A stretch of 47,442 bases of DNA from a virus (taxonomy: Duplodnaviria; Heunggongvirae; Uroviricota; Caudoviricetes), in the IMG/VR virus record IMGVR_UViG_2913112809_000004, positions 1-47,442 of that record; one strand, 5' to 3'. Made by a program: the position numbers. Each line of letters begins with the position of its first letter. The stretch's first letter is position 1. Positions 1-6,000 of this stretch are shown here, in pieces.

Positions 1-3000
1 TTAAGTTGAATCAGCGACTACAACAAGCCACGATAACCAACTCTTTTTTTGCCCCATTTCTGCCCCTTTTGCAGCGTTTTGCCCCATTTTTGCCACCATA
101 AAAATCCTAAAAATACTCAATTCGTGAACTGCAGATTGCACCTCTGAATACTTTCCAATAGAATCCATTCCGGCTGGAAATTATTCAATATTCGCACTAT
201 CGAAAGTTAACCAGCCGACCGCAGCACGTTCTTGCATACGACGTGTCTGCGGTTTTTTTACATCTGCAAAACTGCACAAGACTCTTTTCATCCCCATGAT
301 TGTTTTAGGTCAAATTTCACACCGTTTCTTGTATTTATCTCATAAGCATGACTGATAAAGATTTCTACAATAAATGATGACAGGGGATTTATTTTATTGC
401 GCTATCAGTAAACTCACCTGTCAGACACAACATCCACTCTGTACGCCTGGTACTCGTTGTGTCTTTAATTGAAATATCCCGTTTGTCAGTATGTTTGTTC
501 AGATATTATGTTACCCCGTCTTTGTGTAGAGTCCTGTTATCCATGCTTTAGGTCTCGTTATCACGTACTTGAGACGGGGCTTTTTTTTACCATTCAGCAG
601 AAGTCCGCTATTTTTCTTGCTCTAACTGACTACTAATTGGGCTTTAATAAATGGCGATTTGGTATTTCCGGCACAATGAAAGATGGGATTTTTACAACGC
701 ACCGGATAGCTCACCCACAATAAGAGGTTTGTCGGGAAATCTCACAGGTAATTCAGATGTGTCCGTCGCTTCAACTTTTTGGGCATACAACATCCACTCC
801 CTGAGTGATTTTTTATCAGCTTCGCTGATAATCCCAAGTGACAGCCACGTTTGCCACAGCTGTGTTTTTTCCATTATCTCCTGAAGTAATTTTTGCTTCT
901 CCCGTTCAGCGTCACGAATTTTCGCCGCCCTTTCGGCCTCGTCGTCTTTTATCCATTTCGCACCATCCCATCGATGGAATTCCCCCTCTGGCGGTAAAGT
1001 GGTGACATCATCCGGCAAAGCCCCCGGACGGGAAATGCACAATGTCTTCCCGGTGGCTGTGTCATATACCGTTTTCCCACGGTGGTCTTCAACAACTTCC
1101 CACTGTTGCTGTGCATCGTTGAAAACGGCAACCTGGCCGGGGCCAGCCTCTGGCGGTTCGATAAGCGTGCAGTTCGCCGGTAATCCTGTATTCGGCGGAA
1201 TATAAACATCTCCTGCGCCTATATACTCTTTTGTATCAGCCCGTATGTTATAAATTTTCAGTGTCCGGGATTCCGGACTCATTTTGAAATTTGTCATGCC
1301 AGTCTCACAATGAAGTTAAACGCGATATTTTTAACTGTATTTTCTGCATTACCCGTCTCATCAACTGTGACATCATGACCATGCTCGCCCAGTGCCACGG
1401 TATGGGCGTGTGGGCCTATATTGGTACGATGTGCATGTGTACCGCCACTGCTGGTTGTTATATCCGCTATATATCCTGGCGTATCCCATTTTGTTCCACC
1501 GTTCCTTGTTGTTGTTCCAGCCCACACACCATTAACAATATGATTATGCTCTCCACCTGACTCTGTGCTTTTAGAGCCATAATCAAAGGAACTTGTCTCC
1601 CTTGAACCCAAATCCGTCGGTATCACCTTTGCTGTATGCCCGTGCCGCTTAACACCGTCCTCTTCAAGGGACAGAACAGCTCGCCCGTCGGGTTTGCCTT
1701 TTATTATCCACCCTCGCATATCAGGTATTACACCTGACGGAAATACAGCAGCCAGTTGTGGATACGCAGATTTATCGAATGGCTGCCCCTGCATTATTGC
1801 AAACCCCTCCGGGGGAATATCCGCTGGCCATGCAAAAGCTATCCCTGCCGGATAAGTACCGACAGATTTCAGTTCATCGACCGCTTTTCTGGCACTGTCA
1901 CTGTACTCTTTTGCATCCTCTGAACTTTTCCTGGATTCGTCGGCAAAGCGACCAGCTTCGTTTCTTAACTGCGTTGTCAGCTGTGCATTCTGCTCCACAG
2001 ACTGCGCTGCATCCGTTACTGTCAGGGTATTCTGATGCACCTGGCTGGCATTCTGCGCAACTTCTGATGCCAGACGCTCAACATGCTGTACGTTCTTGGA
2101 AACATCGCCTGCATTCTGCTGAATACCTGTCGCCAGGATTTCCACCTGCTTTTCAGTTTTCGCGGCATCCGCTGCGTGCTGTCCGGCACTTTGCGCGCAG
2201 CCCGCAGCAGCTTCGGCGCTCTTCCGTGATTGTTCTTTAAATTCCTCCGCCTTATTTTTATTGTCCAGAGCTGTGGTTGCTGCGTTTTTTGCAGCATCAG
2301 CGGCCGCTTCCGCTTTCTCCCTGTCACTGCTCACCTGTTCAGAGAGACGGTTGACCGTATCCGCAATTTCCTCAAAACGTTTCACCACATCCGGCTTCAG
2401 GTCGTCTTCATCAAGGGCGGTCAGAAAGTCGTTCAGCGTGCCGGGCTTTGAGTCGTAATAAACTGAGATATCACCAACACAGTACTCTTCGCGCCAGTCC
2501 TGCCGCAGATAAACGCAGTATTTTCCGACCTGCGCCTCGAACGAATATTCCCCATTATTTCCGGTCACCACGTCAGCAACTGTGCGCATCACCACTTCTG
2601 AGGTATTTACCCGGGATTTCAGAATTATGTGGCATCCGGACATGGGGATGCCTGCGCCATCAATCAGCGCTCCTGATATCACTACAGACATATTTTTCTC
2701 GCGATAAATAAAATCAGGAAGAGGCTTCCGGAGAGACAGGCCATTCAATGGCTCTGTATGAGGTTTTATCGGTGATAGTGCTGAAATCCATCGCCTGCAG
2801 CGATTTCGCGTATATACGCCAGGCTTTCAGCTTTTCTTTGTCTTCGTCGCTGATTAACCCCAGCAGCAGGTCTTTTTCCCATTCACCTGTCCGGAGGCTG
2901 ACCTGAGCCAGAAGCGACTCACGCTCATCTTCCGCTTTAAGTCTGTAATCAAAAACAAACTTATCATTGCGGTAAAACCAGTAGTCATTTTCTTCAATTC

Positions 3001-6000
3001 GACGGTATGCGGTAATATCAGGCAACTCGATAACACTCATTCCCTTCGGGTCAATGCCAGTCACGTCCTTTTCAACGGCAAATACCCTGCCTGAAGGAAG
3101 GTACGCAATCTTGATGGTATCAGGAGAGAACTTTTTTTTGTTCCTCGTACCAGTTTTCCCCGCTCTCAGAGAACAGCCACTCAATACCGTGCTCTTTTGT
3201 CAGTTTGTATTGCTCTGCCGTTTTTGGATTACCGGCTGTAATATTTTTTAAATGCAGCATAATTAAAGCGCCGTCACGTTATACCAGGTTCCGTTAATTA
3301 ATTTCTGAAGTGGACGGTAGCGCATATATGTTACGTGCGTCCCGCGACTCCCCCATACGTCAAGCGTTACCCCGGTCATTACACATCCTCCGGGAACATC
3401 TGTCGTCTGTGACGATGCTGTCGGAGAAGCACCCACCGAGCCAAGTCTTATATCCTGCACGATGCCTGTTTTCATCTGATAACGAGCATCAAAATTGCTG
3501 TAATTACCCGGTATAACCTGACCGCCTCCGGCGGTGATATTTCCGCTTGAAACATTTAAACCTCCGCCGACAGTCAGCCCGTTGCCCATCGTGACTGCGC
3601 CAGTGGCATTATTGATACAGAATGGCCTTAGTCCGTTATAGCTCCCAATGCTGTCGCCAGCATTGGTTAACATAAAATATGTGTTCGCACCGTCGTTTCT
3701 GACAAAAAAACCGTAATTACCATAAGCGATACGAAAGCCGTTTGCTGATTTTGATACAACCTCACCATTGATGATGGCATTCACCAGAACATACAGCGCA
3801 TCCAATTTTAGATTCATCAGGTCTTTGGTTGTGGTTCCAGACTTACTCCGCCACTTGAAATATTCGTTTCCATTATCCCCCGTTTCAAACCACAGATATG
3901 AATCGGTGTCTGAATCCGAATCATTTTTAAACCCAATCTTTGCCCAATCTGTATTTCGAATCCACGCAAGGATTGAGTCATTTTCAAACGTTAGCCCGCC
4001 CGATAATGCATCACCAGATTTTTTTACATATCGCAGATCAAAATCCGAATAAATATTGCCGGGGTTTATCACACTGAAATAGCTTTTCTCACTATCAAGA
4101 AGGCAAATTAAGGGAATGCCTTTAATGATATCGTTCGCTACCAGCTCGGACTGGTTCCCCTTATAAAGTGGGAACGTACCAAGAACCTTTCCGCCCAGTG
4201 TTAATTGAAGCGTCGCGGCGTTGGTATTGTTCTGAACGGGGAAAACGATAATCGGGGTTCGTAGCGTCCAGTCCGAGCCTCCATTAACAAAAAACGTCGC
4301 GGGAAGTTCAAGCGTCAGTGCATTTGCAGTGCCGCCAGCAACACCCGCAATATAATGACCACTCTGAAGCTGCGCTATCTGTACGAAATAGTTTTCCGAT
4401 CCACGCGTGGCAAAGTTAGCCACAACGTCATTAAGGGACCAACCTTTCGCGGTTGTTCCTTCCTGCCCACGAATGACTTTCAGCACATCACCGCTTACCG
4501 ATACCAGGTGACAAATCTCAAATGCAGACTCTTTATTATCGGTAAGCGTAATTTTTGCATAGACGTGTTGCCCGTTTGATTTATTTTCAAAATCGGCAGA
4601 AAGCAATTTTGCAAATTTAGCCCCCGTACCAGGCATCACCGGAATATCAGTCTGAATCGTCGTAATATCACCAGCCAGTGCTGAAACAACGTTATTGCCG
4701 AATCCAAGAATCATTTTTGAATCACCGTTGTTACATAGGAATAAATAAAAGGGAGTTTTACATATTTCTGGTCAATGGCATCTTTCAGAAAATAGCCGAT
4801 GCCATCGCCATACTCTGGTATCTGAACAGAAAAAACGCTGTCCAATACTGTCACACTCACATCAAAAGTGTGCTGCAACGGCGGGTCTATTCCGTTTTTT
4901 CCATGAATGAACCGCGCCACACGGCGCTTTAACCAGTCAATGCAAAAATGCGAACCGTCAGCCTTATAAAAATTCCACGTTAATATTCGTTTGAAATAAT
5001 CATCAGGGACATACGATGCCTGCCCCGGAACGTAATTCCGCATTGCTGCGTACGGGATCGTATTGTATTCAATGGTATCGTATGCACCGCGCGCAATAGC
5101 CTCCTCTGAAACCTGTAGTAAAGGTCTTTCAACACCGTAAATACCAAGTGCTATCCAGTCCAGCAACTGCCCGGTTATTGATTCCGATGTCCAGCATGGC
5201 AATGCCAGATTGTTGAGTGAATCGAGGTATTCCTGAGCAATTTCATTGTATGCTTCAAAGAACGCAACAACATTCGGATCATCTCTGTACTGCACAAACG
5301 GATAAGCAGGAAGAATTTTCTCAGTCAGATATTGCATACTTGTTGACCTGAACCTGTGATGCCACCGTTGAAAAATAGGAATAGGTATCGCCATAAACCA
5401 GGCTTGTGTCTTTCGCCGGAAGAACAATATGGCCGTTAATACCAATGCTCACACTGATTGTTGAGATCAATGTTGCATCAACCAGCAACCTGACAGAACT
5501 GGTAAAAATATCCTGGATACGCAGAAGATTTATCGGGTGTCCGACTTCAATTGAATTGATGTAATCAGCAACGTTTTGCTGCACAGCCATAGCAATACCC
5601 GCCGGATCAACATAATCATCTGACACCGTGTTCCAGGTGATTAGCACCATGACGTTTTGTGATGACGGGATAACGAACGGCACCTGATAAACATCCGGCG
5701 AAACGGTTATTGAAACCGTGCGTTTTTCCACTGCCGCACCGGATGGATTGCTTACATCGTTGGTCAGTTTCGAAATATCCGGTACAGATTTGTAAATCGC
5801 ATAAGCCACATCATACGGATCACCGCCACCAACAACCGCAACCCATTTCCCCAGCGACGACTGCCGGAAAGAAATCAGGTTTTCTCGCACACCACTTACT
5901 GATTTGAGCATCGCTTTAAAGCAATCCGGTGTTCCCTGCACACCAAACATGCCGGACTCCATGACTTCGGCGCGGTAAGATGCCCACGTTTGCGCCTCCT

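Follow-up and report, generated by a model that had tools for sequence, protein, structure and literature searches.

Two tandem tail fibre-chaperone pairs, a probable native baseplate fibre and an accessory lambda Stf-type fibre, in a contractile-tailed Rac-SA53-type prophage

The window analysed here is the whole 47,442-nucleotide (nt) stretch of the IMG/VR virus record IMGVR_UViG_2913112809_000004, a prophage with a tail of the Rac-SA53 / vB_Apl-pPE4 (hereafter pPE4) type, and the genes under study are the four that code for its two tail fibres and their two chaperones, all on the minus strand directly after the J-like and I-like baseplate genes. We consider it likely that these genes form two independent, co-oriented fibre-chaperone pairs, pair 1 providing the native fibre of the baseplate and pair 2 an accessory fibre of the lambda Stf type. 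A sequence-only reading of the window had described two complete fibre-plus-chaperone modules in tandem, and this description holds: the four genes are present, the fibres are separately initiated and each has its chaperone. The two comparisons that this reading had suggested, a domain-level alignment of both fibres and a survey of related prophages for one or both modules, gave a Mu S/P2 H-type fibre 1 and a lambda Stf-type fibre 2, with both modules in close relatives and mostly pair 1 alone in distant ones. The four-gene layout is annotated in phiP27 (L54-L57), Rac-SA53 (tail1-4) and pPE4 (gp67-70); it is the rule in this prophage family, common in Escherichia prophages and already deposited. 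The window is a new mosaic member of a known family and adds little by itself. The main point of interest is how and where a collar domain that grips the tube in lambda would dock on a sheathed tail, and Rac-SA53, pPE4 and phiP27 are inducible relatives.

A probable native fibre pair and an added Stf-type pair

We collected 85 loci by their I-position baseplate protein, 5 from species-representative genomes and 80 from IMG/VR contigs. Where this protein was at least 80% identical to that of the window, a fibre with a Stf-type N-terminus (Stf-N) followed the first chaperone in all 47 assessable loci, being truncated in 8 of them, whereas below 80% identity 19 of the 20 loci had pair 1 only and a single locus had both pairs. 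This split indicates that pair 1 is sufficient for this baseplate and that pair 2 is an add-on, which, judging from the sequences, was gained in the Escherichia/Yersinia branch. The inter-pair junction measured by tblastn was 27 nt in 38 of the 47 loci. In the Serratia loci, host or O-antigen modification genes, or an integrase, were located directly after the first chaperone, and Arsenophonus nasoniae (L009, 10817-13402) exhibited two tandem genes with a fibre-1-type anchor and a single chaperone. In Yersinia similis (L005), a gp37-type tip with a lambda-type Tfa was mounted on the fibre-1 scaffold and a separate Stf-N fibre came after it; a gene coding for a 333-residue glycosyltransferase-like protein, assigned by eye from its N-terminal sequence, was located between the two fibre pairs (12638-13639). 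The combination found in the window, a Mu S-like shaft together with a gp37-type tip and lambda-type Tfa on fibre 2, was present in only one other related locus (L016).

In seven of the eight truncated loci (L019, L027, L034, L035, L040, L041 and L046), fibre 2 was a stub of about 33-57 collar-domain residues with an L57-type chaperone close behind; their sequences look like deletion derivatives of pair 2. In the eighth (L038), fibre 2 looks frameshifted near residue 83, with the distant chaperone kept.

Fibre 1 combines a lineage-specific anchor, predicted to attach it to the virion, with a shaft and a tip of the Mu S type. The anchor was 97% identical to residues 1-241 of pPE4 gp67, and its identity tracked that of the I-like protein across the 85 loci (Spearman 0.72). 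The AlphaFold2 (AF2) model of the anchor, of moderate confidence (predicted local distance difference test, pLDDT, 76), matched the tail fibre in the Pa193 baseplate complex with an expectation value (E) of 8e-6 and the N-terminus of the GP4 tail fibre with E 3.5e-5; residues 1-228 showed no alignment to the N-termini of Mu S or P2 H. Since the anchor co-varies with the I-like protein and the distant relatives keep pair 1 alone, pair 1 appears to be the baseplate's own fibre. Its fibre-then-chaperone order directly after the J and I genes is that of P2.

The shaft was near-identical to residues 182-340 of Mu S (PDB 5YVQ), with E 1e-84 for the stretch and about 90% identity by hand count, and Pfam Gp34_trimer was found at residues 257-367 (E 1e-33). 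The match to the Mu S tip covered residues 377-481. The sequence-only reading had proposed a P2 H-like C-terminus, and residues 230-480 indeed aligned with P2 H residues 392-666, reaching 666 of 669, at 45% identity (E 3e-56); by sequence, the C-terminal half is nevertheless closer to Mu S than to P2 H. The tip was 48% identical to that of pPE4 and 28% to that of phiP27 L54. The first chaperone, once its frame was repaired, has 181 amino acids (aa) and matched Mu U (E 8e-35) as well as P2 G (36% identity, E 3e-43), in agreement with the G-like chaperone proposed earlier; it was 78% identical to pPE4 gp68 and 71% to phiP27 L55.

The frame of chaperone 1 is broken in the window by an extra A in a run of eight (A8). 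A contig of assembly GCA_004745255.1 matches the window at 100% identity. In the copy of GCA_005781185.1 the run is A7 and the open reading frame (ORF) of chaperone 1 is intact at 181 aa, without other difference nearby; over 17,452 bases this copy differs from the window at two places, both of them extra A's in homopolymers of the window, and there are no substitutions. The independent read assembly SRR6148341 also has A7 and an intact chaperone 1 of 181 aa, and the site has no A7 or A8 run in relatives. Given only these two homopolymer differences and the A7 of SRR6148341, the sequences identify the frameshift as an assembly error or a very recent slip and no property of the element. The frameshift reported by the sequence-only reading is thus present in the assembly of the window, but does not belong to the element.

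The state of this copy is affected by a second lesion of another kind. The capsid gene (about 17651-18676, minus strand) contains a stop codon at 18023-18025 that splits the product into 217 and 113 aa, the major capsid protein having 342 aa in pPE4 and other relatives. The window, GCA_005781185.1 and the SRR6148341 reads all have this stop, which makes it a real mutation. From its sequence, the prophage copy is probably defective through this stop, while the tail genes look intact. An extra homopolymer base near 9335 divides the gene of a 335-aa baseplate hub-like protein into two minus-strand ORFs, 8911-9321 and 9311-9919; the run is T7 on the plus strand of the window and T6 in pPE4 and GCA_005781185.1, and the split is specific to the assembly and resembles the chaperone-1 frameshift in its signature.

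Fibre 2 starts with a domain of the lambda Stf type. Its match to Pfam phage_tail_N (PF08400) spans profile positions 1-132 of 134, and the lambda Stf N-terminus (PDB 9e7m) was matched with E 2e-17 by the single sequence and 1.3e-40 by the profile. In Foldseek, the AF2 model of the domain (pLDDT 82) matched 9e7m (E 3e-7, template modelling score, TM, 0.84), the collar spike gp40 of myophage XM1 (7kjk; E 5e-7, TM 0.61-0.63 over 130 columns) and, weakly, the N-domain of A-1(L) gp82 (gp82N; E 0.018). The profile match to XM1 gp40 had E 1.5e-7 and 24% identity and extended to profile position 181. The proposal of a lambdoid Stf-like second fibre with its own N-terminus and a Tfa was borne out: fibre 2 was 43% identical to lambda orf-401 (the N-terminal part of Stf) and 45% to orf-314 (its C-terminal part), and chaperone 2 was 47% identical to lambda Tfa (E 3e-59). 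The sequence-only reading had treated this N-terminus as one for attachment to the baseplate. A full N-terminal domain is indeed present, but its sequence classes it as a collar domain, with no baseplate anchor of the P2 or Mu kind. The median pairwise ratio of nonsynonymous to synonymous substitution (dN/dS) in the collar domain was 0.08, which corresponds to purifying selection. The alanine-rich shaft that follows is probably a trimeric coiled coil, and the distal tip matched Pfam Collar (E 9e-9) and phrog_295 (E 1e-120).

In Ur-lambda, twelve Stf N-domains surround the tail where the tube meets the distal tail protein, and this 12-mer collar carries four trimeric fibres; these fibres make adsorption 10-30 fold faster and are non-essential (PMC12617516). 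In myophage XM1, the N-domain of gp40 binds the neck proteins gp4 and gp5 of the head-completion and terminator rings (PMC10457771), and myophage A-1(L) has a neck fibre with a similar N-domain (PMC10966104). Receptors of the gp37/Stf family are OmpC, OmpF or sugars of the lipopolysaccharide (PMC9659904).

We found that the collar domain does not follow tail type. It was present in 300 records of the phage collection, almost all of them non-contractile, lambda-like or other siphophages, among which only pPE4, Rac-SA53 and phiP27 were more than 80% identical to the window in this domain. Of the 80 closest collar domains in IMG/VR, 41 were located behind tails of the Rac-SA53 type, 18 behind tails of the Mu type, 9 behind tails of the P2 type and 3 behind J/lom regions of the lambda type. 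A Tfa-type chaperone was the gene just upstream in 72 of these 80 loci, and the domain stayed about 90% identical whether the preceding chaperone was of the Rac tail2, Mu U or lambda Tfa type; it also follows lom in lambda-type loci, gpD in P2-type loci and the glycosyltransferase-like gene in Yersinia similis. Chaperone 1 was considered as a docking partner of fibre 2 and rejected, as the collar domain does not co-vary with chaperone type. A homologue search with a 151-aa N-domain returned mostly fragments at contig ends and was used as an alignment only.

In the working that we propose, the segment would come last in the late operon of a prophage with a contractile tail, from which both pairs are predicted to be always expressed, with no switching. 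Fibre 1, with its lineage anchor and its Mu S/P2 H-type shaft and tip, would be folded by the Mu U/P2 G-type chaperone and placed on the baseplate as the tail's own fibre. Fibre 2, built of a collar domain of about 94 residues, a helical shaft and a T4 gp37-type tip, would be folded by the lambda Tfa-type chaperone and held through its collar domain on a ring elsewhere, most likely at the neck, which is favoured because the sheath covers the tube and because XM1 and A-1(L) offer precedents. We infer that both fibres would be mounted on one virion and give it two receptor specificities, fibre 2 probably acting as a non-essential adsorption aid like lambda Stf. By analogy with XM1 and A-1(L), we suggest tentatively, and at somewhat less than an even chance, that the Stf-type fibre is a neck fibre mounted by its collar domain here and in the phiP27/Mu-type and P2-type contractile prophages. 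If so, such particles would carry a receptor-binding neck fibre besides their baseplate fibres, and a single portable collar domain, nearly unchanged, would be able to dock on necks or rings in several unrelated tails as well as in lambda-type tails. Our literature search returned nothing on the fibres of Rac-SA53, nor on the role or position of PF08400 Stf-type fibres on contractile tails.

Module exchange and alternative explanations

The locus shows sharp mosaic edges in comparison with E. coli M8, phiP27 and Yersinia similis, which bears out the module exchange that had been proposed from the sequence. In phiP27, the fibre-1 tip is 28% identical to that of the window, chaperone 1 is 71% identical and fibre 2, over its first 106 residues, 91%, and the DNA match in the region is a single block at 2366-3037 with 85% identity; no match to the window was found among the head, neck, sheath and baseplate proteins of this phage. 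The E. coli M8 prophage has lambda-like head genes and a P2-like tail with its own H/G-like pair, and pair 2 recurs after its FI-to-D tail genes, at 91% identity over window positions 726-2713. The edge of this similarity is exactly the stop codon of chaperone 1 (2713). Variety would arise by recombination at conserved joints, one where the fibre-1 anchor ends, a second spanning the 3' part of chaperone 1 and the fibre-2 start, and a third at the chaperone-1 stop, where the cassette has its edge.

Pair 2 might instead be a passenger, a lambda-type cassette acquired through recombination among prophages, which travels beside the attachment site and is expressed but unmounted, or is used by co-resident phages only. 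We regard this as unlikely, although several observations would suit it: the near-identical cassette stands behind unrelated tails, lies at the extreme prophage end beside the host flank as stf-tfa does in lambda, and is shared with E. coli M8 together with the integrase-side early region but without the structural genes; the truncations in 8 of 47 relatives and the collection records of the collar domain, nearly all from siphophages, point the same way. It has to be reconciled, however, with a pair 2 that all 47 assessable close relatives keep at a fixed spacing after chaperone 1, with a collar domain under strong purifying selection while tips and chaperones are exchanged, the pattern that a working receptor-binding protein should show, and with the homologous N-domains of XM1 and A-1(L), which do fix fibres to contractile-tailed virions. 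A jointed fibre in the manner of the T4 gp34-gp37 halves, in which fibre 2 would dock on the fibre-1 tip or on the chaperone bound there, is suggested by the T4 gp34 trimerisation domain in fibre 1 and the T4 gp37 tip in fibre 2, by the joint transfer of the chaperone-1 3' part and the fibre-2 start to phiP27, and by the Tfa-type chaperone so commonly found just upstream of the collar domain; the Mu chaperone U reportedly remains on the fibre tip. Such a jointed fibre is nonetheless quite improbable. In Mu, S is the whole fibre, and fibre 1 likewise has a complete tip of this type as well as a chaperone to itself; the collar domain is indifferent to the type of chaperone before it and also follows lom, gpD or a glycosyltransferase gene, and its known partners are tube or neck rings. 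T4-type hinge or connector proteins were absent between the fibres, with only Tfa-type chaperones between and after them.

Two further readings concern switching between fibre states. A homopolymer is the usual substrate of slippage, and the A7 and A8 contigs are each listed for four samples, so the A8 run could be viewed as a functional switch of fibre-1 assembly by phase variation or programmed slippage; with copies that differ by two homopolymer A's only, the signature of a length error or a recent slip, with A7 in independent reads and with no such run in relatives, we find this very improbable. Mu uses an invertible fibre segment, the G segment, and fibre 1 and chaperone 1 are Mu S/U-like; fibre 2 would then be an alternative C-terminal cassette of an invertible or alternative-exon system. 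A tblastn search of the window for a Hin/Gin-type invertase, with a Hin-family probe, gave a best E of 1.2, and none was found; the same probe detected a short invertase remnant about 7 kb downstream in one related locus (L111). The best inverted repeat was 21 nt at 76%, and no spare ORF was located downstream. With neither an invertase nor a notable inverted repeat the locus is not an invertible segment, as the sequence-only reading had also held, and fibre 2, co-oriented with the other three genes, has a separate start codon and a full N-terminal domain; we give this explanation practically no credence.

Several points weigh against a native fibre and an accessory fibre working on one particle. 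Joint assembly, like the attachment site of fibre 2, is deduced from genes alone, and the same applies to the two fibre systems on one tail of the sequence-only reading. The survey counts (47/47 and 19/20) come from IMG/VR loci that are largely near-identical Escherichia prophages and are counts of non-independent events. Part of the XM1 sequence alignment falls in a low-complexity coiled coil. Against all PDB sequences, the concatenated neck, tube and baseplate proteins of the window matched only with the central spike (phi92 gp138, E 2e-4), and the candidate neck proteins had no sequence match to those of XM1, lambda or any other solved neck; the XM1 analogy is therefore drawn from the fibre side alone. 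It is difficult to see how docking could be specific if a single collar domain is to serve three or more unrelated contractile tails. Fibre 2 is dispensable, as it is truncated in 8 of the 47 close relatives, and with its genuine capsid stop the copy in the window probably makes no phage. A native pair 1 with an accessory, Stf-type pair 2 is still the arrangement that we favour.

Gene layout and neighbouring features

The coordinates of the fibre region are collected in the table. The J-like protein was 99% identical to pPE4 gp65, and the I-like protein 97-98% to its homologues in pPE4 and Rac-SA53. The gene junctions are, in order, a 4-nt overlap, a 2-nt gap, the inter-pair spacer of 22 nt and a 4-nt overlap of the chaperone 2 start with the fibre-2 stop codon; the compact junctions of 2-4 nt described by the sequence-only reading hold for three of the four, the exception being the one between the pairs. 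The longest ORF of fibre 2 begins with TTG at 2748, and the start in relatives corresponds to the ATG at 2691.

Table 1 Features of the fibre region of the window. Residue numbers refer to the protein named; aa, amino acids; E, expectation value.
Feature	Position	Strand	Details
J-like baseplate wedge protein	5324-6547	minus	408 aa; Pfam Baseplate_J E 1.8e-7; phrog_6 baseplate wedge subunit E 6e-38
I-like baseplate protein, P2 I position	4714-5337	minus	208 aa; phrog_8212 E 2e-118; marker of tail lineage
Fibre 1	3263-4714	minus	483 aa
Fibre 1 residues 1-240, lineage-specific predicted virion-attachment domain	3995-4714	minus	phrog_25419 E 4e-118
Fibre 1 residues 229-387, Mu S-type shaft (T4 gp34 C-terminal trimerisation domain)	3554-4030	minus	PDB 5YVQ
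Fibre 1 residues 388-483, Mu S / P2 H-type distal tip	3266-3553	minus	Mu S residues 407-502, E 1.5e-10
Chaperone 1	2714-3260	minus	Pfam Caudo_TAP E 1e-25; Mu U / P2 G type; frame broken in the assembly of the window
A8 homopolymer with extra base breaking chaperone 1	3132-3139	minus	one-column gap against three relatives
Spacer between pairs	2692-2713	minus	22 nt; left boundary of pair-2 cassette
Fibre 2	1294-2691	minus	465 aa from ATG at 2691
Fibre 2 residues 1-94, lambda Stf-type collar domain	2410-2691	minus	Pfam phage_tail_N (PF08400) E 9e-56
Fibre 2 residues ~100-270, alanine-rich helical shaft	1882-2394	minus	AF2 helix at residues 100-129
Fibre 2 residues 272-465, T4 gp37 / lambda Stf-type tip, His-x-His motifs	1297-1878	minus	PDB 2XGF E 3e-57
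Chaperone 2	692-1297	minus	201 aa; lambda Tfa type; Pfam Caudo_TAP E 1e-28; phrog_105 E 6e-76

The presence of a sheath gene at 13975-15312 (phrog_205, E 7e-55) means that the tail is contractile. The tube protein is encoded at 13523-13963, and candidate ring proteins at 15315-16256, 16246-16683, 16683-17120 and 17123-17590. A simple scan for promoters and terminators gave sites no more frequent than in shuffled sequence, and where chaperone 1 ends there was only a weak 5-bp hairpin; a transcription unit for pair 2 alone was rejected on this ground. With the tight junctions and no such excess, the four genes look like the tail end of the late operon. An Rfam search of window positions 1-8000 showed no structured RNA match. 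Downstream of chaperone 2, a stretch of about 100 nt at 159-257 is 87-90% conserved in more than 1,700 E. coli genomes and also in phiP27, close to its right end; this stretch includes a hairpin and had no Rfam match.

Within the baseplate operon, two opposite-strand genes are inserted at 6569-7583 (plus strand), one coding for a 182-aa protein with a signal-peptide-like N-terminus (phrog_31333, a family of unknown function) and the other for an AntA-type antirepressor; both are also found in pPE4 and Rac-SA53. The 662-aa protein in the tape-measure position (10854-12842, minus strand) has a lytic transglycosylase (SLT) domain and is only 49-58% identical to its pPE4 counterpart, the flanking genes being about 98% identical, which marks another local mosaic patch.

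The host flank of the element is about 91% identical to E. coli, and a search of complete E. coli genomes gave no match spanning 80% of the region; the prophage sits at the Rac site of an Escherichia species other than typical E. coli. Its fibre end adjoins uspF-ompN-ydbK, which is the Rac site, and in other assemblies its integrase end adjoins potC and potD. The integrase-side early region (42170-47442) is 93-94% identical to a prophage of E. coli M8 located between potB and potC. Judging from these sequences, the element may be a hybrid that arose by recombination or inversion between two prophages. The relative pPE4 (PP818812.1; L001/L004) has Actinobacillus pleuropneumoniae as recorded host, is 95-96% identical to the window over about 19 kb of structural genes and carries the Rac-type early genes recT, recE-like, kil and ydaT; its Actinobacillus host label looks doubtful.

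Comparison with known fibre systems

The closest systems are phiP27, Rac-SA53 and pPE4, in each of which a contractile-tail operon ends, as in the window, with fibre, Tfa, Stf-N fibre and chaperone. In pPE4 and Rac-SA53, the fibre-1 anchor and the baseplate proteins are 97-99% identical to those of the window, and the collar domain is about 90% identical in all three (91% in phiP27). They differ in the fibre-1 shaft and tip, the near-Mu S shaft being found among these in the window only, and their fibre 2 has other tips with an L57-type chaperone, whereas the window has a gp37-type tip and a lambda-type Tfa. Unlike the window, phiP27 has an unrelated, Mu-type tail.

The Stf/Tfa system of Ur-lambda resembles pair 2 in its order of collar domain, coiled coil and gp37-like tip, with Tfa directly downstream. 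The lambda tail is non-contractile and its collar grips the exposed tube, whereas the window has a sheath gene and this site would be covered; moreover, lambda orf-401 and orf-314 add up to 715 aa against 465 aa for fibre 2, and lambda stf follows J and lom whereas fibre 2 follows another fibre pair. Mu S/U and P2 H/G are like pair 1 in having the fibre after the J and I genes and in a homologous C-terminal half and chaperone, but the N-terminal 228 residues of fibre 1 are unrelated to theirs and the invertible segment of Mu was not found in the window. XM1 gp40 and A-1(L) gp82 share with fibre 2 an immunoglobulin-like N-domain followed by a long helix, on sheathed tails, and differ from it distally, where XM1 has a tailspike and A-1(L) a bead chain. 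Residues 272-465 of fibre 2, including the His-x-His motifs, are like T4 gp37; the tip of the window is shorter, with gaps in the receptor-choice region, and goes with a Tfa-type chaperone, not gp38.

Fibre-chaperone cassettes decide which bacteria are attacked by a phage or by a tail-derived bacteriocin. This family shows that two different scaffolds can each take the same tip and chaperone cassette, and that unrelated contractile tails can be given a second fibre ready-made, both of use for host-range engineering. Shigella phage Sf14 and the T5-like DT57C (LtfA/LtfB) are virulent phages with unrelated proteins whose structures were seen directly, whereas the arrangement in the window is known from genes alone; their particles carry two receptor-binding fibres each, as we propose here.

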